NCBI GenBank assembly: GCA_963708805.1
Contig: CAVPUA010000003.1
Coordinates: forward strand, 750,455 to 814,454
Length of the DNA: 64,000 bases
Reading direction: 5' to 3'
Origin: an uncultured Actinomycetes bacterium
GTDB lineage: Bacteria > Actinomycetota > Actinomycetes > Mycobacteriales > Jatrophihabitantaceae
Positions 46,157 through 60,045 of the stretch are shown piece by piece. The translations under genes were made by a program, and so were the position numbers. Position 1 is the stretch's first letter. The number at the start of each line of letters is the position of its first letter. The notes beneath the pieces are model-generated. The model did not search any database. It was given only the letters and a program-made list of their open reading frames with translations, and was not told the origin of the DNA.

Positions 46157-46504
46157 TTGACGATCGAGACACAGCGACTCCCGCTCGGGTCGGTCTGCGC
46201 CGCCCGGTCGGGCGACAAGGGCGGCAACGCCAACATCGGGGTCTGGACGCGAGATGCGGCCGGCTACGAGTGGTTGCGTACGTACCTCACCGTCGATCGC
46301 CTGCGCGAGCTGATCCCCGAGGCGGCCGATCGTCCAGTGCGTCGGTACGAACTGGCGAACCTGAACGCGCTCAACTTCGTCATCGTCGGGCTGCTCGGCG
46401 AGGGGGTCGCCGCCTCGACCCGCTCCGACCCGCAGGCCAAGGGGCTGGGCGAGTACCTGCGGTCGCGACTGGTCGACATCCCCGCGGTACTGGTCAGAGG
46501 CTGA
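46157..46504 (+). CDS. AtuA-associated small protein (DUF4387-like, tentative)
   Basis: Intact 115 aa from TTG 46157, 1 nt after the DUF1446 stop. Carries an AARSGDKGGNANIGVW motif. Confidence 0.55.
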   Translation: MTIETQRLPLGSVCAARSGDKGGNANIGVWTRDAAGYEWLRTYLTVDRLRELIPEAADRPVRRYELANLNALNFVIVGLLGEGVAASTRSDPQAKGLGEYLRSRLVDIPAVLVRG

Positions 46505-46506
46505 AC

Positions 46507-47107
46507 GTGGTCACCCCGACCGAACCGGCGCGCCGGCGCGACCCCGAGCGCCGCCAGCGAATACTGACCGCCGCGGCCGATCTGGTCGCCGAGCGGGGCT
46601 ACCACGACGTCGGCATGATCGAGATCGGCGCCGCGGCGGGCATCACCGGCTCGGCGATCTACCGGCACTTCGGCGGCAAGTCGGCCGTCCTCGTCGCGAT
46701 GTTCGACCGGGTCATCGACAATCTCGGGCGCGAGGCCGAGGAGATCGTGGCGGCCGAGACCGAACCCCGCGAGACACTGCGCCGGCTCGTACAGACGCAG
46801 GTGCAGTTCGTCCTGGACGAACGGACGCTGGCGCAGGTCTATCACCACGAGATCGCCAACCTGCCCGAGGAAGACCGCCACCGGTTGCGACGCAAGCAGC
46901 GGCTCTACATCGAGGAGTGGGTGCACGTCCTCGCCGTGCTGCGCCCGGACGTCAACGACGGGCAGCTTGCGCGCGCTCGTGCACGCATCGATCGGCGCGA
47001 TCCAGTCGCAGTTGTTCTACGAGAGCGGCTTGCCCCGAGGGCAACTCGAGCGGCTCATGTCGTCGGTGGCCGAAGAGGCACTGTTCGTACCGGCGGACGA
47101 AGCGTGA
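46507..47107 (+). pseudogene. TetR/AcrR-family regulator, one frame break near 46970
   Basis: HTH ILTAAADLVAERGYHDVGMIEIGAAAGITGSAIYRHFGGK is in the main frame. The C-terminus ALVHASIGAIQSQLFYESGLPRGQLERLMSSVAEEALFVPADEA is in another frame, and its TGA overlaps the next GTG. Confidence 0.75.
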
Positions 47108-48093
47108 CCGCGCGCCTGGACTTCTACACCGGCAACGGGCTGCGTCTGGCCGACGCCGTGACGGTCGCGTCGATCACCGAGGCGGCCGGGCTCGGCGGGT
47201 TGTGGACGCTCGAGGCCCACACCGAGCCGTTCCTGCCGCTCGCTCTGGCCGCCGAGCACACCTCGCGCATCCGGCTCGGCACGTCCGTGGCCGTCGCGCT
47301 GGCCCGCAACCCGATGGTCGTCGCCCATCTGGCCCACGAACTCAATCGATTCGCCGCGGGCCGCTTCGAACTCGGGCTGGGGCCGCAGGTGGGCGCGCAC
47401 ATCGTGCGTCGATACGGCGAGAAGTTCGATCACCCGGCCGAACGGATGGCCGAGTTCGTCGAGGCGCTGCGAGCGATCTGGAGCACCTGGAACGACGGAT
47501 CGCCACTGCGGTTCGAGGGGCGGTTCTACCGGCACACGCTGATGACACCCGCCTTCGATCCCGGGCCGTCGGGCTTCGGCTCGCCGCGGGTGCACCTCGC
47601 CGCCGTCGGCCCGCGCATGGTCGACGTCGCGTGCCGGCTGGCCGACGGCCTCATCGCCCATCCGTTGTCGTCGCCGCGGGTGATCACCGAGCGGCTGCGT
47701 CCGGCCGTCGCCGATGCCGCCCGGCCGGACTTCCAGCTCTCGTGTCCGGTGCTCGTGATCACTGGACGCACCGACGACGAGATCGCCTCGGCCCGGCGGC
47801 AGGTGCGCAAGCAGCTGGCCTTCTACGCCTCGACGCCGTCGTATCGCTCAGTGCTCGAGCTCCACGGGGCGGGCGATGTCGCCGATCGCCTGCGCGAGTT
47901 GTCGAGGACCGGCCAATGGGACGCGATGACCGAGTTGATCAGCGACGAGTTGCTGGCCGAGTTCAGCGTCGAAGCGCCGATCGCGTCACTGGTCGCCCGT
48001 CTGCACGAGCGCTTCGACGACCTGCTCGACGTCGTCCTGATCTATGCGCCGTACGAAGTCGATCATGAGCTCTGGCTCGATCTGAACGTCTAG
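47104..48093 (+). CDS. LLM-class (luciferase-like) probable F420-dependent oxidoreductase
   Basis: 329 aa from GTG 47104 within track ORF 46270..48093. TIM-barrel LLM pattern (GRFELGLGPQVGAHIVRRYG, FEGRFYRH). The stop TAG lies inside the IS481 target duplication. Confidence 0.7.
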   Translation: MTARLDFYTGNGLRLADAVTVASITEAAGLGGLWTLEAHTEPFLPLALAAEHTSRIRLGTSVAVALARNPMVVAHLAHELNRFAAGRFELGLGPQVGAHIVRRYGEKFDHPAERMAEFVEALRAIWSTWNDGSPLRFEGRFYRHTLMTPAFDPGPSGFGSPRVHLAAVGPRMVDVACRLADGLIAHPLSSPRVITERLRPAVADAARPDFQLSCPVLVITGRTDDEIASARRQVRKQLAFYASTPSYRSVLELHGAGDVADRLRELSRTGQWDAMTELISDELLAEFSVEAPIASLVARLHERFDDLLDVVLIYAPYEVDHELWLDLNV

Positions 48094-48094
48094 C
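48089..48094. repeat. target-site duplication TCTAGC (left copy)
   Basis: Identical hexamer at 49189-49194. Contains the TAG stop of the LLM gene. Confidence 0.8.
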
Positions 48095-48115
48095 TGTTGT
48101 GACCTGACACGTTGT
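48095..48115. repeat. IS481 terminal inverted repeat (left)
   Basis: TGTTGTGACCTGACACGTTGT matches the reverse complement of 49168-49188. Confidence 0.8.
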
Positions 48116-48116
48116 G

Positions 48117-49088
48117 TCAGGTTGCGAGCCGGCTGGTGGGTGGGTGTCCGCCGAGGGCGGAGTGGCCGCGTCGAGTGTTGTAGTAGTGCAGGAAGCGGTC
48201 AAGGCCTTGGCGGCGGAGGTTGTTGCTGGTCCAGGGTCGGGCGTAGGCCCATTCGGTGAGCAGGGTGCGGTTGAATCGTTCGGCTTTGCCGTTGGTCCAG
48301 GGGCAGCCGGGTTTGGTGAAGCGGCGTTTGATTTGCCAGGCCGAGCAGACCCAACCCCAGTCGGTGCCGTGGCGATAGACCAGGGCGTTGTCGGTCAGAA
48401 CACGGCGCACGCGGATGCCGTGGCTGGCGAACCAGGCCAGGGCGCGGTGCAGGAACCCGGCGCTGGTCGGGTCTTTCTCGTCGGCCAGCACTTCGGAGTA
48501 GGCCAGGCGGGTGTGGTCGTCGATGGCGGTGTGGACGTAGTCGTAGCCGATCTTCGTTTTCTTGTGCCGGTTCGTGACCGACACTGCGGCGTCACGGCCG
48601 TGCAGGCGCCACCCGCCGCCGGTGGGGATCTTGCCCAGCTTCTTGACGTCGACGTGGATCATCGCGCCGGGACTGGGATGCTCGTAGCGGTTTTCGCTGC
48701 GCCGGGAGGCCCGGACCCGCTCGCCGGTGATCGGGTCGATCGCCGCCAGATGCGGTACCTGGTGGCGGGCCAGGATCCGGCCGACCGTCGAGGCGTTCAG
48801 GCCGAGCTCGGCCGCGAGCACGACCGCTCCTCGCTTGCGTCGCCGCCGCGCGCTCAGAACACGCTGCTCGATCCGTTTTGGGGTACGAGCCGGCATCCGC
48901 CGCGGCCGCGAAGAACGATCGCGCAGCCCACCATCACCGCCCTCAGCGAAGCGACGAACCCACTTGTTCACGGTGGCGCGTGAGACGCCCAGTTGCTCGG
49001 CGACATGAGCTGGCGGCCAACCCGCCGCCACACGATCGACCATCAACCTGCGCGAGAACGGCGTCGTACGAGCGTTAGCGTGAGCCAT
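48117..49088 (-). CDS. IS481-family transposase (HTH + rve/DDE integrase core)
   Basis: Intact 323 aa with an N-terminal HTH (VAEQLGVSRATVNKWVRRF) and an integrase core (IHVDVKKLG...VLTDNA...PWTNGKAERFNRTL). Confidence 0.9.
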   Translation of the reverse strand: MAHANARTTPFSRRLMVDRVAAGWPPAHVAEQLGVSRATVNKWVRRFAEGGDGGLRDRSSRPRRMPARTPKRIEQRVLSARRRRKRGAVVLAAELGLNASTVGRILARHQVPHLAAIDPITGERVRASRRSENRYEHPSPGAMIHVDVKKLGKIPTGGGWRLHGRDAAVSVTNRHKKTKIGYDYVHTAIDDHTRLAYSEVLADEKDPTSAGFLHRALAWFASHGIRVRRVLTDNALVYRHGTDWGWVCSAWQIKRRFTKPGCPWTNGKAERFNRTLLTEWAYARPWTSNNLRRQGLDRFLHYYNTRRGHSALGGHPPTSRLAT

Positions 49089-49167
49089 AGAGGACCTCCT
49101 GCGGGTGAATGCCTAGACACATCCACTCCGTCAGGAGGTCCTCCCACGATCAAGCAGGCTCGCCGTA

Positions 49168-49188
49168 ACAACCTCTCGGGTCACGACA
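49168..49188. repeat. IS481 terminal inverted repeat (right)
   Basis: The reverse complement is TGTCGTGACCCGAGAGGTTGT. Confidence 0.8.
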
Positions 49189-49194
49189 TCTAGC
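49189..49194. repeat. target-site duplication TCTAGC (right copy)
   Basis: Identical hexamer at 48089-48094. Contains the stop (CTA on the + strand) of the WhiB-like gene. Confidence 0.8.
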
Positions 49195-49960
49195 CCCGCC
49201 ACTTCGGGCCGCGTCCGAGCCGGATCGGTCCGGTCGCGGCGGCGAGTTCGATCGGCTGGCCGCGCTGGGTGATGCGCAGGACGCCCGCGACCCGCAGCGC
49301 TTCGGCGACCGAGCGCGACTGCTCCATCGCCTCGCGCCCCGACACTCCGAAGACGACGCGGGCGGCGTCACTCGGGCAGATCGTCGCCTCGGCCGGTCGG
49401 TGGCGCAGCAGAGCGCGCATGGCTGCCGCCAGGCGAGTTCGCCGCCCGTCGGCCGTCGACGGTTCCCACCACGGTTCGCCCCGTTCTCCGAGAGCGGTTG
49501 CCGCGTCGTCCACGCGCGTCGTCGCGCTGAGGTCCCCGTGGTCGATCGCGCGCCGCGCGCTGGCCAGCTCCGCGAGCAACTCCCCGCGCAGTTGCTTGGG
49601 GATGCCGGGATCGCCACCGGCGTCGGGGGGTTCGAGTGGGCCGACGTCCACGCACGGCTCCGCGGTGGCCCGGCTCGCATCGATCACCGGTCGGCGCAGT
49701 CGGCGACGCTCGTCGTCGTCGAGTCCGCCCCAGACGCCTTCGTAGCCGTTGGCGAGCGCGCTCTCCCGGCAGCGATCGATCACCGGGCAGCGCGCGCAGA
49801 TCGCCTTGGCGGCCGCGACCTGAGCCAGCGCCAGCCGACCCGACCCGACGGGGAAGAACAGCTCGGGGTCCTCGTCGAGACAAGCGGCCCGCCCACGCCA
49901 GTTGCCGCGCAGTTCGTCGACATCGCGAGAGCGGGCCCGAGTGCCCAGTGGTCGGGTCAT
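49190..49960 (-). CDS. WhiB-like Fe-S transcription factor fused to a DUF3253-like C-terminal domain
   Basis: ATG 49960 inside track ORF 49190..50287 gives 256 aa. Four-Cys pattern AAC...CARCPVIDRC plus GVWGG and an ERRRL basic patch. The C-terminal ICPSDAARVV...GVLRITQRGQPIE...GPIRLGRG resembles DUF3253. Confidence 0.7.
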   Translation of the reverse strand: MTRPLGTRARSRDVDELRGNWRGRAACLDEDPELFFPVGSGRLALAQVAAAKAICARCPVIDRCRESALANGYEGVWGGLDDDERRRLRRPVIDASRATAEPCVDVGPLEPPDAGGDPGIPKQLRGELLAELASARRAIDHGDLSATTRVDDAATALGERGEPWWEPSTADGRRTRLAAAMRALLRHRPAEATICPSDAARVVFGVSGREAMEQSRSVAEALRVAGVLRITQRGQPIELAAATGPIRLGRGPKWRG

Positions 49961-50412
49961 GGCTCGAGCGCCCGCGCCCGGAGACGACGGACTCCGACCA
50001 GGACTAGCACCGCCGACCCGACGCCCAGGAGCAGGCGGCGAGGCAGCGAGGTGAGCACGGCCGACCCGATTGCGATCGGGTGGCCGAACTCGACGTGGGG
50101 GCTGCCGGTGGCGATCCGCCCGCTGGTGGAGCCGCGACCGCGTCCGAGCTGAACGACGGTCCCGCGTGAGCCGGTGACCTCGACGGACAAGCCGGCGCCA
50201 TCGAGCGCGGTGGCGGCCTGGGTGATCACGGTCCGGGCCGACGCCCGGGACCCGACGGACCGCACCGCTCGCGCGGTCTCCGCCCACAGCGCCGACGCGT
50301 CGTCGGTGACGAGCCGCAGGTGGGTGCCGTCGGCGAGCAGGCGGGCATGGTGCGCGCCCACCTGGATGTCCAGGTCTGAGCTCACCTCGAACTCGCCGCC
50401 GGTGTCGCTCAC
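49957..50412 (-). CDS. hypothetical protein with C-terminal TM anchor
   Basis: GTG 50412 (VSDTGGEFEV...) gives 151 aa. Its start overlaps the upstream stop (GTGA) and its stop overlaps the WhiB-like ATG (ATGA). C-terminal hydrophobic LLLGVGSAVLVLVGV. Confidence 0.5.
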   Translation of the reverse strand: MSDTGGEFEVSSDLDIQVGAHHARLLADGTHLRLVTDDASALWAETARAVRSVGSRASARTVITQAATALDGAGLSVEVTGSRGTVVQLGRGRGSTSGRIATGSPHVEFGHPIAIGSAVLTSLPRRLLLGVGSAVLVLVGVRRLRARALEP

Positions 50413-50645
50413 CCTCGGGCTGCGCCTTCGGACGTGGTGATGCGGAGCGTGCCGTTGAGCTTCCAGGTGGCGCGGGGCGAGTCCGGGCCGGTTTCGCGCG
50501 GCACCTCGACCGACATGTCGACGAACTGGTAGTCGATGGCGGCGCCCTTTCCGGTCAGGTAGGCCCACATCTCCTTGCCAAAGTCGGCGAAGCTGCTGCT
50601 GTCGTGGTTCTTGACGTCGCGGGCACCGGTTGCGGTGTCGGTCAT
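50409..50645 (-). CDS. hypothetical small protein (first gene of a 3-gene overlapping operon)
   Basis: ATG 50645 (MTDTATGARDVKNHD...) gives 78 aa with high GC3. No motif recognised. Confidence 0.5.
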   Translation of the reverse strand: MTDTATGARDVKNHDSSSFADFGKEMWAYLTGKGAAIDYQFVDMSVEVPRETGPDSPRATWKLNGTLRITTSEGAARG

Positions 50646-50756
50646 GATTGATCTCCTTCTCCTGGGTGGTTCGGCGGCCGCCAGCCGGATGGTCGGCGGC
50701 CGCCGACACACCCTTGCTACCCATGATGAATCAGAATCAAGCATGAACGCGCTAAT

Positions 50757-51572
50757 GTGAGCAAAAATGAGCAGGAGCGAGCGTTGTTGATCCCGGACCG
50801 GCACCGACTGCTGCTCGATCAGTTGCGCGCGACCGGATCGGGCGAGGTGAGCGAGCTGGCCGTCCGGCTGGGCGTCAGCCCGTCGACGGTGCGGCGCGAC
50901 CTGACCGAGCTGGAAGCCGAGGGCCGGCTCAAGCGGACGCAAGGCGGCGCGTATCTGGACGATCGCGAACCGGGCCGGCCATCCAGCGACGCCAACGCCA
51001 ACTCCAACTCCAACGCCAACGCGGACGCCAATGCCAACGCGGACGCCAAGCTACGCATCGGCGCCGCCGCGTCCGCCCTCATCGGTGACGGCGCGACGGT
51101 GATGATCTTGGCGGGCTCGACGACGGCAGCGATGTTGCCCCACCTGGCCGACCGATCCATCACCGTCGTCACCAACGGACTGGACATCGCATATGCCCTG
51201 GCCGCCTATCCGCGTATCTCCTTGGTGATGCTGGGCGGCGTGCTCCACCGCGAGCAGATGACGTTGCTCGGTGCGATGACCGAGCAGAACATGGCCGACT
51301 TCCAGGTCGACCTGATGTTCGCCGGCGCCTACGGGGTGCACCCCCGGGCCGGTGTGACCGGAAGCAAGCCGATCGCCGCCTCGTATCACCATTCGATGCT
51401 CGAGCACACCGAGAAGCTGGTCGTACTGGCCGATTCGAGCAAGTTGGGACGACGCGGCCCGACCCGGCTGGCCACGGTCGACCAGGTCGATCGGTTGATC
51501 ACCGACGCGGCCGCCCCGGCGGCCCTGATCGAGCGGTTGCGGGACGCCGGCGCTCGCGTCGAGGTCTGCTGA
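50757..51572 (+). CDS. DeoR/GlpR-family transcriptional regulator
   Basis: Intact 271 aa with HTH VSELAVRLGVSPSTVRRDLTELE and a C-terminal sugar-phosphate-sensor domain. The linker carries an Asn/Ala/Asp repeat. Confidence 0.85.
   Translation: MSKNEQERALLIPDRHRLLLDQLRATGSGEVSELAVRLGVSPSTVRRDLTELEAEGRLKRTQGGAYLDDREPGRPSSDANANSNSNANADANANADAKLRIGAAASALIGDGATVMILAGSTTAAMLPHLADRSITVVTNGLDIAYALAAYPRISLVMLGGVLHREQMTLLGAMTEQNMADFQVDLMFAGAYGVHPRAGVTGSKPIAASYHHSMLEHTEKLVVLADSSKLGRRGPTRLATVDQVDRLITDAAAPAALIERLRDAGARVEVC
50988..51050 (+). repeat. imperfect hexanucleotide tandem repeat (GCCAAC-like, about 10 units) inside the DeoR linker
   Basis: gac gcc aac gcc aac tcc aac tcc aac gcc aac gcg gac gcc aat gcc aac gcg gac gcc aag encodes DANANSNSNANADANANADAK. 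Confidence 0.8.
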
Positions 51573-51584
51573 GCCGATCGGGCG

Positions 51585-51863
51585 TTACTTCGTCAGACGC
51601 AGTTTGGGGCACACCTCGCGGCCGCACGTCCGGCAGTGCGATCCGCGGCCGTAGTGCTCGTGGGTGCGCCGTCGGCAGCCACACGTGCACCGGCCCTCGT
51701 CGGACTGGTCCGTTTCGCGATTCGGCGTGCGCGAGGGGGCCGAGCGACCGTCGGTGGAGACTTCGAGCACTACCAGTGAGCAGAACAGCCACAGCACCGT
51801 AAAAACGGCAAACGACATCCAACCTACTTCCGCGATGTCCGGAAGGACGGAGAATGTGTGCAT
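51585..51863 (-). CDS. small membrane protein with Cys/His-rich C-terminus
   Basis: 92-aa ORF with an N-terminal TM (WMSFAVFTVLWLFCSLVVL) and a C-terminal CTCGC...H.H.....HCRTCG...C, possibly metal binding. Followed upstream by a 50%-GC region. Confidence 0.45.
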   Translation of the reverse strand: MHTFSVLPDIAEVGWMSFAVFTVLWLFCSLVVLEVSTDGRSAPSRTPNRETDQSDEGRCTCGCRRRTHEHYGRGSHCRTCGREVCPKLRLTK

Positions 51864-52061
51864 GGCGGTTCCCCTCTGTTACTTCACGTGTGCTATGTGT
51901 TAAGATATGCTAGACAGACACAGCAAGGCAATACAGCAATAAGCCTGAAGTCCGACGTGAAATACGTGCTAGAAAATTTCCACAAAGACGTTCAGTCGGC
52001 GTCAGATGTGGGAAGACCGCTTCGTGGAGGGACGGCGGCCTGAATCCGGGTCGCTACCACC

Positions 52062-52523
52062 GTGACCGGCAGCCATGGCGCCGCCGGGTCGCAGCCATCC
52101 AGCTGGAGGTCGATCGTGCCCGTGTCATGCCCCCCGTCACGCCCGGCCAGCCGCCTGGCGGTCGGCGATCGCGTGATCATCGGCGATGGCCCCGCCTCGG
52201 GGATGGTCGGTGAGCTCGCGGGCGTCGACTTCGACACCGACTTCGCCCAGGTCCGCGTGATGATCCCCGTTCCCTGGGGTCTGCGACCGGGCACGGCCGT
52301 CGTCACGGCCGGCGCACTGCGTCCAGCCCGTCCTCGGCTCGACGAGCTGATCGAGCCGGTTGCCATGCCCCGGCGGGGACGCCCGCGGGTCATCAGCGAG
52401 GAGACCGTCGAGAAGATCGAGCGGCTGTACGAGACCGGGATCTACTCGCACGCCGACATCGCCGGCATCGTCGGCGTCAGCAAGAGCAGCGTGACGTCCT
52501 ACCTCAAGCGGCGCAGCGACTGA
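52062..52523 (+). CDS. hypothetical protein with C-terminal helix-turn-helix; start uncertain
   Basis: 153-aa ORF. The C-terminal GRPRVISEETVEKIERLYETGIYSHADIAGIVGVSKSSVTSYLKRR resembles resolvase/Hin-type HTH. Confidence 0.5.
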   Translation: MTGSHGAAGSQPSSWRSIVPVSCPPSRPASRLAVGDRVIIGDGPASGMVGELAGVDFDTDFAQVRVMIPVPWGLRPGTAVVTAGALRPARPRLDELIEPVAMPRRGRPRVISEETVEKIERLYETGIYSHADIAGIVGVSKSSVTSYLKRRSD

Positions 52524-52547
52524 TCTCGAGGCGTTCCGGGCGTCCGC

Positions 52548-52985
52548 TCACCGAGGCGGTTCGCCGACGCTCCGGCCGCCCCACTCCTCGGGAGCGATGT
52601 CGGCCAGTGTCTCGGAGAACGTCCACCGATGGCCGGCGAGATCGAGCGCGCCGTACTGGCGCTCGCCGTAGGGAAAATCGGTCGGCTCCATGACGATGCG
52701 CGCGCCGAAGTCCTGGGCCCGCCGGTAGTGGGAGGCGACATCGGCGACCCGCACCATGACCGACGCCGACACGTCGCCCGCAGACGGCGCCACGCGTTCG
52801 CCGCCGACATCCGCCACGATGATCGCCCCGTCGGCGAACGACAACTGGGCCCGGTGATCGTCGCCGATGCGCACCCGTTCGGTGAACCCGAACGCACCCT
52901 CGAGCCACCTGACCGCGGCACGGACGTCCGGATAGGTCAGCACCGGGATCACCGTCGCTGACGGGATCGAGCGATTGCTCTTCAC
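52548..52985 (-). CDS. VOC-family (glyoxalase/bleomycin-resistance fold) protein
   Basis: Intact 145 aa. IPVLTYPDVRAAVRWLEGAFGF and DLAGHRWTF are typical VOC patterns. Confidence 0.7.
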   Translation of the reverse strand: MKSNRSIPSATVIPVLTYPDVRAAVRWLEGAFGFTERVRIGDDHRAQLSFADGAIIVADVGGERVAPSAGDVSASVMVRVADVASHYRRAQDFGARIVMEPTDFPYGERQYGALDLAGHRWTFSETLADIAPEEWGGRSVGEPPR

Positions 52986-53036
52986 GACTCCACCCTCTTC
53001 ACGGCTCCAACCTAGGCCGAGCGGACGGCGGCCACA

Positions 53037-57319: not shown

Positions 57320-58453
57320 TCAGCCGCGCCGGATCGCGGCCTGCTCGGGCGTGCGGGCGACGAACTGTGGGCCGGTGACCTCGGTGTCGTAGTAGCGGTG
57401 GAACACCGGCGTCAGCGCGCCGCTGATCGGCGGGACGATCCAGCTCCAGTCCGCGGGGCACCGCCGACCGGCCCGCTCCTCCTTCTCGACGTGGGTCAGG
57501 AAGCGGCGCGACTCGGTGTGGTGATCGGCGATCGTCACCCCGGCCTGCGCGAACGAGTGCAGTACGGCCCGGTTGAGCTCGATCACCGCGCGGTCACGCC
57601 ACAAGGTCTGCTCGGATGACGTGTCGAGGTGCAGCCGCTCGGCGATCGTCGCCGTCAGGTTGTAGCGGTCGTGGTCGGCCAGATTGCGGGCGCCGATCTC
57701 GGTGCCCATGTACCAGCCGTTGAACGGCGCCGAGGAATAGGTGACGCCCCCGATGCGCAGCGCCATGTTGCTGATGGCGGGCACGGCGTGCCACTTGAGT
57801 CCCAGTTCGGCGAACCACGCGTGATCGGGGTGCGACAGGTGCACCTCGAGGATGTCGGCGTCCGACAGCTCGAACAACGTCGGCGGTTCGTCGCCCGTCT
57901 CGATGACGAGGGGCAGCACGTCGAAGGCCGAGCGGACCTCGGGGGCCCGCCACCCCAGTTGCTGCACCCGCTCGGTGAACCGCGCATACCGGGGATCGCC
58001 CAGCGGGCCGGCGTCCTCGGTGGGGTAGCCCGCATAGCGGATCAGCTGCTCGTTCCAGATCGTCGGTCCGGGCTGCCCCGGTTCGTCCGGCGCGAAGACG
58101 CTGACCACCGGTCGGATCCGGCCGCCGTTGGCCGCGATCCGCAGGTGGGCCCGGCAGTGATCGGCGATGCCTTCCGCGCTTGTGACATTGCGCAGGTCGC
58201 GCACGTACAGGCTGTTCCAGTAGAGCCGGCCGATGCAGCGCGCGCTGTTGCGCCAGGCCACCCGGCAACCCCAGATCAGTTCGGAGTTGGTGTGCCGGTA
58301 GGTACCGGTCTCGAGGATGGACGTGGCCACCTCGGCGGTGCGCACGACCCGGTCTCCGGCGGTCGGGTTCTCGGCATGGAACTGGTCGACGAACTCGAGC
58401 GCTTCGTGGAGGTCGACCCCGGACGATCGTTCGGTTGCTGCCTCTGCGTGCAC
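57320..58453 (-). CDS. nos: nitric-oxide synthase oxygenase (bacterial NOS)
   Basis: Haem-thiolate motif WRNSARCIGRLYW, plus GWYMGTEIG, ADHHT and WIVPPISG blocks. GTG 58453 (377 aa) lies 2 nt after the upstream stop. The track ORF extends to 58846 over the upstream gene. Confidence 0.9.
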   Translation of the reverse strand: MHAEAATERSSGVDLHEALEFVDQFHAENPTAGDRVVRTAEVATSILETGTYRHTNSELIWGCRVAWRNSARCIGRLYWNSLYVRDLRNVTSAEGIADHCRAHLRIAANGGRIRPVVSVFAPDEPGQPGPTIWNEQLIRYAGYPTEDAGPLGDPRYARFTERVQQLGWRAPEVRSAFDVLPLVIETGDEPPTLFELSDADILEVHLSHPDHAWFAELGLKWHAVPAISNMALRIGGVTYSSAPFNGWYMGTEIGARNLADHDRYNLTATIAERLHLDTSSEQTLWRDRAVIELNRAVLHSFAQAGVTIADHHTESRRFLTHVEKEERAGRRCPADWSWIVPPISGALTPVFHRYYDTEVTGPQFVARTPEQAAIRRG

Positions 58454-58455
58454 GA

Positions 58456-60045
58456 TCAGCCGACCATCTCGAATTTGTCGAAGTGGATCTTGGCACGCGG
58501 AACGCCGCTGTGGACCAGCTTGCTGACCGTCGTCGAGATCATCGGATCCGGCCCCGAGACGAGCACATCGACCCCCATCGTCGCCCAGTCCCGCAGTCCG
58601 GGCACGATCTCCTCGACCCGTCCGTGATAGCCCTCGTAGGCCGGATCGTCGGACAGCACGGCGTGCACTTCGGCGTTCAACCAGTAACCCCCGGCGTGGA
58701 TCAGCTTGGCCAGCTTGTCGACGGAATAGGTGTCGTCTCGAGATCGGCCCCCGACGAACGTGTACAGCTGCGGTGCGTCGGGCCAGCCGAGGATCGACTC
58801 GACGACGGCCGTGATCGGTGCGGCCCCGGTGCCCGACGCGACGCACAACAGGCCGCCCGGAACGGTGCCGGGTTCGACCACGAGATCGTTGCCCCTCGGC
58901 GGCCCGAGCGTGAGACGGTCACCCGGCTGGGTGTGGGCGACCAGCGCCGACGAGACGCCGGACCCACCGAGCGCGCGGACTTGGATGTCGAAGGTGTTGT
59001 CGGCGCGCGGCGCGCTCGCGATCGACATCGAGCGCCACTCCCGGCGGAACGCGGGCACCTCGAGCGTGAGGTACTGGCCGGCCTTGTACGGGTACGGCGC
59101 GTCGGGCTGGATGCGAAGGACGGCGAAATCGCGCGAGAGTCGCTGATGATCGAGGACCTGCGCGCCCCACGACGTGGGCTCGCCCGCGTGCTGCATGGCG
59201 CCGTCGATCATGATCGTGGCGAGCCGCGTGTAGCTGCCGACGATGGCCGCCTCGTGTTCATCGGTCCACTTGTTGCCGGCCAGCCGCTTCCAGGCGCTGA
59301 TCATGGCGGCGCCCGCGACCTCGTAGTGCCGGGGTTCGACGTCGAACTTCCGGTGATCGGCCCCGAGCTGTTCCAGGTGCGCGGTCAGGCCCTGAGGATC
59401 GTCGGCGACCACCCACTGGACGACGGCCCGGCCGAACTCCTGACGCTGCCGGGTCATGCTCGACGGGAACATGAACGGAGCCTCGGGCACGCGCAGGAAC
59501 AGCTCGGCGTAGAAGTCCGAGATCAGCCGGTCGGCCCGGTCGCTGACGAACGAGAACGCTTCGCGCACCAGCGCCGGATCGAAGTCGCGCTGGTTGGCCG
59601 GGAAGACGGGCTTGGGCGGGGGCGGCGGTGTCTGGGCGACATAGAACTCGGGCAGGTTCGGAGGCGGAAGGCGTCGTTGCGCATTGCCGACGACCAGCTC
59701 GCCCGGGGCGGCGATCGGCGGGGCCGGGGCAGCCGGTACCGGCGCCGGTGCGACGGCGGCGGGCGGTGCAGGTAGCTCGGTGTCCGCGTGGGGTGGGCCG
59801 GGCACCTCGGCTTCGAACGACTCCGGCCTCGGGTGCGCGCTAAGCGACGTCGTCCAGCTCGTCGACCCGTCCGGCGACGGTGAATCGGTGGGCGGTTGGC
59901 CCGCCCCGCGTTCGTGTCCGTGCTGCGGCGCCGAGTAGTCGTCGTCGAGGAGCCATCGCCGTAGTGCACCGCGCAATCCCACCGGACACCCCCTGTTCAG
60001 GACCGCGCGCAACGCACTTGGCCTCATACCACGCGTGTCGGCCAC
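58456..60045 (-). CDS. globin-domain / FNR-type FAD-NAD(P)H oxidoreductase fusion (flavohaemoglobin-like) with Pro-rich N-terminal extension; start uncertain
   Basis: Globin-like FYAELFLRVPEAPFMFP and LGADHRKFDVEPRHYEVAGAAMISAW. FNR motifs RSMSIAS (RxYS-type), GGSGVSSAL, the NAD(P)H loop ASGTGAAP, and SGPDPM. The first ~170 aa are Pro/Ala rich. Confidence 0.75.
   Translation of the reverse strand: MADTRGMRPSALRAVLNRGCPVGLRGALRRWLLDDDYSAPQHGHERGAGQPPTDSPSPDGSTSWTTSLSAHPRPESFEAEVPGPPHADTELPAPPAAVAPAPVPAAPAPPIAAPGELVVGNAQRRLPPPNLPEFYVAQTPPPPPKPVFPANQRDFDPALVREAFSFVSDRADRLISDFYAELFLRVPEAPFMFPSSMTRQRQEFGRAVVQWVVADDPQGLTAHLEQLGADHRKFDVEPRHYEVAGAAMISAWKRLAGNKWTDEHEAAIVGSYTRLATIMIDGAMQHAGEPTSWGAQVLDHQRLSRDFAVLRIQPDAPYPYKAGQYLTLEVPAFRREWRSMSIASAPRADNTFDIQVRALGGSGVSSALVAHTQPGDRLTLGPPRGNDLVVEPGTVPGGLLCVASGTGAAPITAVVESILGWPDAPQLYTFVGGRSRDDTYSVDKLAKLIHAGGYWLNAEVHAVLSDDPAYEGYHGRVEEIVPGLRDWATMGVDVLVSGPDPMISTTVSKLVHSGVPRAKIHFDKFEMVG

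Follow-up and report, generated by a model that had tools for sequence, protein, structure and literature searches.

An uncultured actinobacterium of the Jatrophihabitantaceae (assembly GCA_963708805.1) encodes a 256-residue protein in which a WhiB-like (Wbl) iron-sulfur domain of the WhiB1 type is joined to a DUF3253 winged-helix module. The gene lies on the minus strand of a 64,000-nucleotide (nt) stretch of contig CAVPUA010000003.1, which we call the window, and it is the last of three overlapping genes that we call small, mid and fusion. The anatomy of the fusion is near certain. The overall picture that we favor, with a probability of roughly 55% and largely by analogy, is that of an Fe-S head that would dock on sigma-A and has acquired a DNA-targeting winged helix. 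The odds for the DNA-targeting role of the C-terminal module, taken by itself, appear roughly even.

Domain architecture of the fusion protein

A sequence-only reading of this DNA had described three open reading frames (ORFs) of 78, 151 and 256 amino acids (aa) linked by short overlaps. All three lie on the minus strand, and both coordinates and overlaps are as it claimed. Small and mid share GTGA (GGG-TGA/GTG-AGC), and mid and fusion share ATGA (CCA-TGA/ATG-ACC), as read off the sequence; the second overlap is retained in two related loci, L003 and L165. These stop/start overlaps imply co-translation of the three genes. Small is preceded by a strong Shine-Dalgarno sequence, AAGGAG, and the GC content at third codon positions is 0.84-0.89 in all three genes, in agreement with the 70% GC of the host.

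Scanning the fusion with hidden Markov models placed both a Whib and a DUF3253 domain above the Pfam thresholds. The Whib domain (PF02467) matched residues 21-88 with an E value of 4.4e-22 and 78.8 bits against a cutoff of 23.6. The four cysteines that had been noted as an Fe-S pattern are C27, C55, C58 and C64, which align with C9, C37, C40 and C46 of Mycobacterium tuberculosis WhiB1. The aromatic patch W21/F35/F36/W77 aligns with W3/F17/F18/W60 of WhiB1; in Wbl proteins this patch (AP1-4) binds region 4 of sigma-A (PMC13013590). A G[V/I]WGG turn after the last cysteine is a Wbl motif (PMC6282962), and in the fusion it is found as GVWGG at residues 75-79, followed by the basic patch ERRRLRR. 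The basic patch is retained to R90, the counterpart of WhiB1 R73. P91 sits where WhiB1 has R74, and from there the sequence diverges into a linker. In WhiB1, R73 and R74 belong to a short basic C-terminal helix that binds DNA (PMC5741622).

The best matches of the fusion among PDB sequences were the M. tuberculosis WhiB1 entries 5oay and 6ono (E 1e-22, 83.9 bits, over the 72 residues 20-91). Streptomyces venezuelae WhiB, WhiB3 and WhiB4 followed with 50.3, 45.1 and 37.3 bits (E 2e-12 to 2e-8). Judged by these PDB-sequence scores rather than by a phylogenetic tree, the head is a WhiB1-type Wbl domain, with four ligands for a predicted [4Fe-4S] cluster and an intact aromatic patch. WhiB1 represents the nitric oxide (NO)-responsive type of Wbl protein (PMC5741622). 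Since cysteine spacing, aromatic patch, turn and alignment are shared with WhiB1, cluster-dependent docking on sigma-A region 4 and NO sensitivity are expected for the fusion as well (PMC5741622, PMC13013590). Of the sequence features of the Wbl family, the protein lacks only the usual small size and single-domain build. Wbl proteins are 81-139 aa long apart from WblM, WblO and WblP (Bush 2018, PMC6282962), and the architecture is as atypical as the earlier reading had supposed.

In the C-terminal half, DUF3253 (PF11625) matched residues 175-250 (E 2.1e-19; 70 bits, with the cutoff at 22.1), and the match spans positions 2-80 of the 81 in the profile. A DUF3253-like domain had been proposed for this region; the proposal was right, and it understated the extent of the similarity. 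Over residues 117-254 the fusion shares about 60% identity with hundreds of standalone proteins of about 160 aa. These are built from a DGRxxVVxGRRWRA(T)DP motif at the N-terminus, a helical segment that closes with ALGERGEPWWE, and the DUF3253 domain. All three parts follow the WhiB domain and a variable linker in the three other fusion proteins (P0002-P0004), and the C-terminal half of the window's protein corresponds to a standalone protein minus its N-terminal hairpin motif. Every one of the 38 columns that are invariant across 56 aligned sequences is kept.

An AlphaFold2 model based on the 56-sequence alignment gave residues 115-256 a predicted local distance difference test (pLDDT) score above 92; residues 122-140 and 144-157 form long helices, and a winged helix follows. 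This fold is also that of the solved DUF3253 member, Rhodococcus RHA04536 (PDB 2ns0, 85 aa, a crystal structure of 2006). In the window's protein the winged helix contains 16 Lys and Arg against 7 Asp and Glu, giving an isoelectric point (pI) of 11.8, and the helical hairpin, which is acidic (pI 4.6), packs on it in the model. Two invariant arginines, R209 and R216, are located in helix 3 and two others, R247 and R250, in the wing. Cys195, the cysteine of the ICPSD motif where helix 2 begins, is present in all 56 sequences.

The same features allow a different role. The winged helix might mediate protein interactions or regulation, for instance by contacting RNA polymerase or another factor, or it might be a redox-reactive one-Cys switch that works through the ICPSD motif, with the fusion fixing the stoichiometry of Wbl and partner. 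The invariance of Cys195 and the packing of the acidic hairpin on the winged helix would suit such a role, and a literature search for DUF3253, PF11625 and RHA04536 returned no relevant paper and no assigned function. The pI of 11.8 and the invariant arginines in recognition helix and wing tell against it. We consider this main rival possible, at clearly lower odds than a DNA-targeting module.

Rarity of the fusion and selection acting on it

Only four proteins with both domains were found among 5.8 billion protein clusters, namely the window's own (P0001) and P0002-P0004. When 1.84 billion representatives were scanned exhaustively with HMMER, one spanned both domains, and a metagenome scan with the DUF3253/fusion alignment recovered 80 standalone loci and no further fusion. 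For none of the four sequences is a UniRef or nr source listed. The four proteins are 64-70% identical and are encoded on separate contigs from different samples.

Pairwise synonymous divergence (dS) among the four genes is 0.4-1.3 over the six comparisons. The ratio of nonsynonymous to synonymous substitution (dN/dS) is 0.10-0.25 in the WhiB domain, 0.08-0.28 in the helical part and 0.12-0.39 in the winged helix, against 0.35-2 in the much faster-evolving linker. By these ratios the fusion is real and under purifying selection, and decay of the C-terminal half is unlikely. The region that the sequence-only reading had assigned to DUF3253 is thus well conserved, with 38 family-invariant residues kept and a dN/dS of 0.1-0.4.

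An assembly or sequencing artefact, in which a lost stop codon or a long-read indel created the fused ORF, might be suspected from two observations: several of the related contigs come from metagenome assemblies, and the window's linker differs from those of its relatives by indels. However, the fusion occupies a single frame on each of four independent contigs, which come from different samples, substitutions follow a codon-aware pattern, and window positions 49189-50579 (1391 nt) are identical in a separate Logan assembly of run ERR11523676. The artefact explanation is effectively refuted.

A compensated frameshift in the window's copy

Alignment of the window's DNA with loci L003 and L002 revealed an 8-nt deletion directly after CGCCGGTGGC, the ancestral RRW codons, together with small upstream indels. 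About a dozen codons are read in another frame, so that the near-invariant segment HFIVVNGRRWRAT appears as VGPLEPPDAGG, and the original frame is regained before DPGIPKQL. The ancestral codons are still visible in the alternative frame as RRRWRS. A chance match was ruled out, as the DNA alignment shows RRRWRS to be a true remnant of the GRRWRA codons. W208 and K154, two other positions that are near-invariant in the family, are altered as well. Tested against the standalone subfamily, the window copy has the hairpin and the winged helix and lacks the GRRWRA motif. On this comparison it is a derived variant even inside the fusion clade.

Such changes would fit a nearly neutral read-through, in which only the WhiB part matters and the C-terminal half is decaying. 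Besides the frameshift that destroyed the GRRWRA motif and the altered W208 and K154, the extreme rarity of the fusion and the truncated DUF3253-like gene of a related genome (L017, described below) are in line with this. The selection data are not: in six of six comparisons the C-terminal dN/dS is 0.08-0.39 at a dS of 0.4-1.3, similar to that of the WhiB part. Moreover, 38 of the 38 invariant family residues are kept and the frame is open in four diverged lineages. Neutral read-through is therefore improbable, and selection for the whole protein remains our preferred reading.

Origin of the fusion from neighboring genes

Related loci were collected by scanning one genome per species with the small protein, which gave 76 loci. 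In an uncultured Jatrophihabitans (L017), a divergent deoR gene is followed by small, mid and an 89-aa whiB gene with its own stop codon, and then by a separate 130-aa DUF3253-like gene in another frame. The same gene order is found in L030, where the region is partly masked. In L036, small, mid and whiB are followed by an unrelated hydrolase gene, and the WhiB protein is 69% identical to the WhiB domain of the window. Because Jatrophihabitans genomes hold whiB and a DUF3253-like gene side by side after small and mid, gene order indicates that the fusion joined two formerly adjacent genes in this lineage.

A standalone DUF3253 gene also lies about 1.5 kb from whiB, on the opposite strand, in Friedmanniella luteola (L004, 5001-7395) and in L121. 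In L004 the two genes are separated by one for a RarA/MgsA-type ATPase, between alaS and aspS. These two cases are too few to count as linkage.

Small and mid as a separate two-gene module

At least 972 homologues of the small protein exist; the top 120 share 74-97% identity with it and belong to Geodermatophilaceae, Nakamurella and Jatrophihabitans, and the genome scan added distant relatives of about 55-75% identity in Nocardioides, Pseudonocardia, Actinoplanes and others. Mean column identity of the family is 77%. Small gave no match in Pfam or NCBIfam, and a Foldseek search with its AlphaFold2 model (pLDDT 69; one helix and a beta-hairpin) gave no fold match.

For mid, a word-based search found three relatives only. 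By tblastn and positional analysis, most of the 76 genome loci have a mid homologue behind small, with a 4-nt overlap. These homologues have 115-175 aa and evolve fast. Their N-terminal domain of about 110 aa is conserved, and at the C-terminus there is usually a hydrophobic helix that ends in RRR. Some lack the hydrophobic tail, and three Nocardioides versions have an FHA domain instead. Mid has no family in Pfam or NCBIfam (the sole match, Pepco, has an E value of 0.097 and is below threshold), and a profile search against PDB sequences gave nothing. A C-terminal transmembrane anchor had been claimed for the window's mid protein. The 15-residue hydrophobic stretch LLLGVGSAVLVLVGV, with Arg on both sides and a Kyte-Doolittle average of 1.81 over 17 residues, makes membrane anchoring plausible but does not prove it.

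In 70 of the 76 loci there is no whiB gene within 6 kb of small and mid. In the other six, whiB adjoins the pair either after mid (L017, L030, L036, L076) or before small (L077, L078). This exceeds a rough chance expectation of about 0.4 and is far from obligatory. Since the neighbors of small and mid differ between genera, as found in three annotated contexts, the pair appears to be an autonomous, widespread and uncharacterized two-gene module, which merits its own study. Homologues of small and its partner also occur in records labeled Deinococcota (L072, a Trueperaceae metagenome-assembled genome) and Alphaproteobacteria (L046, 'Jannaschia sp. R86511'), which points to horizontal transfer, contamination or mislabeling.

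Three of the four fusion loci (the window, L003 and L165) have the order small-mid-fusion, whereas L002 has only the fusion next to a divergent deoR gene. The L002 fusion begins with ATGACTGACACTGCGACG, the first six codons of small (MTDTAT; L002 6001-6018 against window 50628-50645), behind an upstream non-coding region that aligns with those of the other fusion loci. From this arrangement it follows that a deletion removed small and mid and retained promoter, ribosome-binding site and start codon. The L002 fusion is under purifying selection (dN/dS 0.16 for L003-L002), and since it was kept in this way after the loss of small and mid, the Wbl fusion is independent of them.

These observations bear on the suggestion, made from the sequence alone, that the operon may be a membrane-tethered redox- or NO-sensing module. 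Spelled out as a model, the three proteins would form one unit in which a tail-anchored mid, together with small, sequesters or releases the fusion at the membrane, in functional connection with the nitric oxide synthase (NOS) nearby. Several points favor it. The codon overlaps imply co-translation, whiB stands beside small and mid in at least three arrangements (after mid, before small, or fused) and above the expected number, and the WhiB domain belongs to the WhiB1 type, which responds to NO (PMC5741622). A real NOS oxygenase gene and a flavohaemoglobin-like gene are indeed present 7-9 kb from the operon. On the other hand, small and mid usually occur without whiB and in variable surroundings, L002 deleted both and kept a selected fusion, and neither NOS nor the flavohaemoglobin-like gene was found in the 12.8-kb neighborhoods of L002 and L003. 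The tail of mid is absent or replaced by an FHA domain in some homologues, and in the window its hydrophobic stretch is merely 15 residues long with Arg on both sides. The co-occurrence of the three genes thus holds for most fusion loci and, with whiB as a separate gene, for Jatrophihabitans-type loci, and fails for the bulk of small-mid pairs. A dedicated three-protein module is not supported, and we consider the tethered unit unlikely, and less likely than a protein-interaction or redox role of the winged helix.

Proposed mechanism and points against it

In the mechanism that we propose, the holo-protein would dock on sigma-A region 4 through the WhiB head, as described for WhiB1 (PMC5741622). 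Held by a flexible linker some 25-45 residues long, the strongly basic winged helix would then contact DNA near the -35 element and confer promoter selectivity on the sigma-bound complex. Loss or nitrosylation of the cluster would release the factor and switch it off or alter its targets, as in WhiB1 (PMC5741622). Small and mid would be co-expressed with the fusion and would not be obligatory partners.

A canonical DNA-binding motif is missing from most Wbl proteins, and how they choose promoters is an acknowledged gap (PMC13013590). Partner proteins and small appendages, among them the AT-hook of WhiB7, are the known answers to this problem. A selected fusion of a WhiB1-type head with a complete winged-helix protein is a concrete, testable candidate for a Wbl partner protein and the first functional lead for DUF3253. 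It hints that the Wbl and DUF3253 families work together. Extended in the manner of a Rosetta stone, the fusion would mean that standalone DUF3253 proteins act in trans as DNA-targeting partners of WhiB1-type Wbl proteins and give the Wbl:sigma-A complex its promoter specificity, with the ICPSD cysteine perhaps as a second redox input. We offer this generalization tentatively and think it rather unlikely. If it were true, the operon would also tie Wbl signaling to the conserved pair of a 78-aa and a tail-anchored protein. The partner idea is testable in cultivable actinobacteria because the standalone protein occurs in many of them.

Several findings weigh against a DNA-targeting module and its generalization. 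The GRRWRA motif is near-invariant in the family and present in P0002-P0004, and because the window copy has lost it, parts of the module are dispensable or decaying in the fusion clade. The DUF3253-like gene in L017 is truncated before the recognition helix. A whiB gene was found within 5 kb of the standalone DUF3253 gene in only 2 of the 80 metagenome loci, adjacent in neither, and a general whiB-DUF3253 linkage is not supported by these gene neighborhoods. The partnership may be lineage-specific; rare fusions to promiscuous folds such as the winged helix are often local accidents and not signs of general partnership. The family is tiny, and general claims rest on few data, namely four sequences. 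DNA, cluster and sigma binding of the fusion are all predicted. Finally, the AlphaFold2 model has low confidence in the WhiB part (pLDDT about 45-70) and in the linker, as is expected with four sequences and no cluster in the model.

Upstream region and genomic context

As in the window, deoR lies divergently upstream in L002, L003, L017, L028, L030, L033, L035 and L036. At its position in L165 there is a divergent 230-aa ORF that is cut by the contig end and whose family is unconfirmed. The intergenic region (Table 1) contains a leader hairpin on the minus strand at 50670-50707, just 5' of the Shine-Dalgarno sequence, formed by pairing between the two occurrences of a GC-rich palindrome, GGCGGCCGCC. 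The leader RNA fold is very stable, with an energy of -42.9 kcal/mol (z -5.5) that none of 200 shuffled sequences reached. L003 and L165 retain the hairpin. A median z of +0.35 across 67 loci rules it out as a general feature of small genes and makes it a trait of this clade. It might control translation or transcription, or serve as an operator for a protein. A scan for consensus promoters found no sigma-70-like site in the intergenic region, a terminator scan was likewise empty, and Rfam gave nothing significant for positions 48000-53000.

On the low-coordinate side there are, in order, genes for an AMP-binding enzyme, a carboxyltransferase and a biotin carboxylase, an enoyl-CoA hydratase and AtuA, followed by a TetR regulator with a luciferase-like monooxygenase and by an IS481-family transposase. 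The 607-aa ORF that spans TetR and monooxygenase domains probably represents two genes, or a TetR gene whose frame runs on into that of the monooxygenase. In Jatrophihabitans fulvus (L164), small and mid likewise have a luciferase-like gene next to them. Between the transposase start and the fusion stop, at 49090-49143, there is a perfect 12-nt inverted repeat, GAGGACCTCCTG / CAGGAGGTCCTC, with its arms 30 nt apart. It may be an insertion sequence (IS) end or the terminator of the operon.

On the other side, deoR is followed by genes for a small protein with an HTH_7 (helix-turn-helix) motif, an Smr-domain protein, a pyridoxal phosphate-dependent decarboxylase, an Ig-like protein, the NOS oxygenase and the flavohaemoglobin-like protein. 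In L003, a 137-aa protein with a weak HTH_7 match is encoded at 345-758, about 5 kb from the fusion. The NOS and flavohaemoglobin-like ORFs share about 390 nt, so one of the two probably starts further downstream than listed.

Table 1. Positions of the operon, the fusion domains and neighboring features in the window.
Feature	Position	Strand	Description
small (gene 1)	50409-50645	-	78 aa, acidic, soluble; ORF translation
mid (gene 2)	49957-50412	-	151 aa, GTG start; conserved N-terminal domain of ~110 aa, C-terminal hydrophobic helix, then Arg
fusion (gene 3)	49190-49960	-	256-aa Wbl-DUF3253 protein
WhiB domain, WhiB1 type	49697-49900	-	residues 21-88; Pfam Whib
linker	49613-49690	-	residues 91-116; acidic, Pro-rich, modeled as disordered, pLDDT <50
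helical hairpin	49451-49612	-	residues 117-170 (DPGIPKQLRGELLAEL...ALGERGEPWWE); homologous to N-terminal half of standalone DUF3253 proteins
DUF3253 winged helix	49211-49438	-	residues 175-250; pI 11.8; invariant Cys195 (ICPSD), R201, R209, R216, R247, R250
intergenic region, deoR/operon, divergent	50646-50756	.	111 nt; conserved over four fusion-clade loci; alignment
deoR	50757-51572	+	271 aa; Pfam HTH_DeoR and DeoRC
HTH_7 protein	52062-52520	+	resolvase-type HTH_7 motif; ~0.5 kb beyond deoR
NOS oxygenase	57320-58843	-	Pfam NO_synthase, E 3e-147
flavohaemoglobin-like ORF	58456-60042	-	globin, FAD-binding and NAD-binding domains
IS481-family transposase	48117-49088	-	rve_3, LZ_Tnp_IS481; ends ~100 nt from fusion stop codon
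TetR/luciferase-like ORF	46270-48093	+	607 aa; TetR_N/TetR_C 98-222, luciferase-like monooxygenase 289-581

Comparison with known systems

The head of the fusion resembles WhiB1/WblE (5oay, 6ono) in its four-cysteine spacing, its W/FF/W patch and its GVWGG turn followed by ERRxLRR. The proteins differ in length, 256 aa for the fusion and 84 aa for WhiB1, and after R90 the basic C-terminal tail of WhiB1 is replaced in the fusion by a linker and a 140-aa helical/winged-helix module. That module is in turn related to the standalone DUF3253 proteins, with which it shares the ~60% identity of residues 117-254 and all family-invariant residues. In the fusion, however, it is covalently joined to a Wbl domain, whereas standalone genes are not normally found beside whiB, and the window copy lacks the DGRxxVVxGRRWRA motif that the other three fusions keep.

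The closest functional analogy for the proposed mechanism is WhiB7/WblC, which also consists of a Wbl head with an extra C-terminal appendage, in WhiB7 one that binds nucleic acid. With sigma-A region 4 held by the head, the AT-hook of WhiB7 contacts DNA just 5' of the -35 element (PMC3905903). The appendage of the fusion is a folded winged-helix module that came from an independent gene and not a short AT-hook peptide, and its head is of the WhiB1 and not the WhiB7 type. An AT-hook of the RGRP type is absent from the fusion sequence, and WhiB7 structures are not among its PDB matches at E<=0.01.

Multi-domain Wbl proteins are rare exceptions to the 81-139 aa rule (PMC6282962), and the review by Chandra and Chater contains nothing on them. 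WblP is such a rare multi-domain protein, as is the fusion. The partner in WblP is a sigma factor, in contrast to the DUF3253 winged helix described here, and a Pfam scan of the fusion found no sigma-70 region 2 or region 4 domain. The fusion also differs from WblP in its setting, a conserved operon of the chromosomal core. The partner domain of the fusion differs from those of WhiB7 and WblP, and the logic of a Wbl head with a DNA-binding appendage resembles that of WhiB7.

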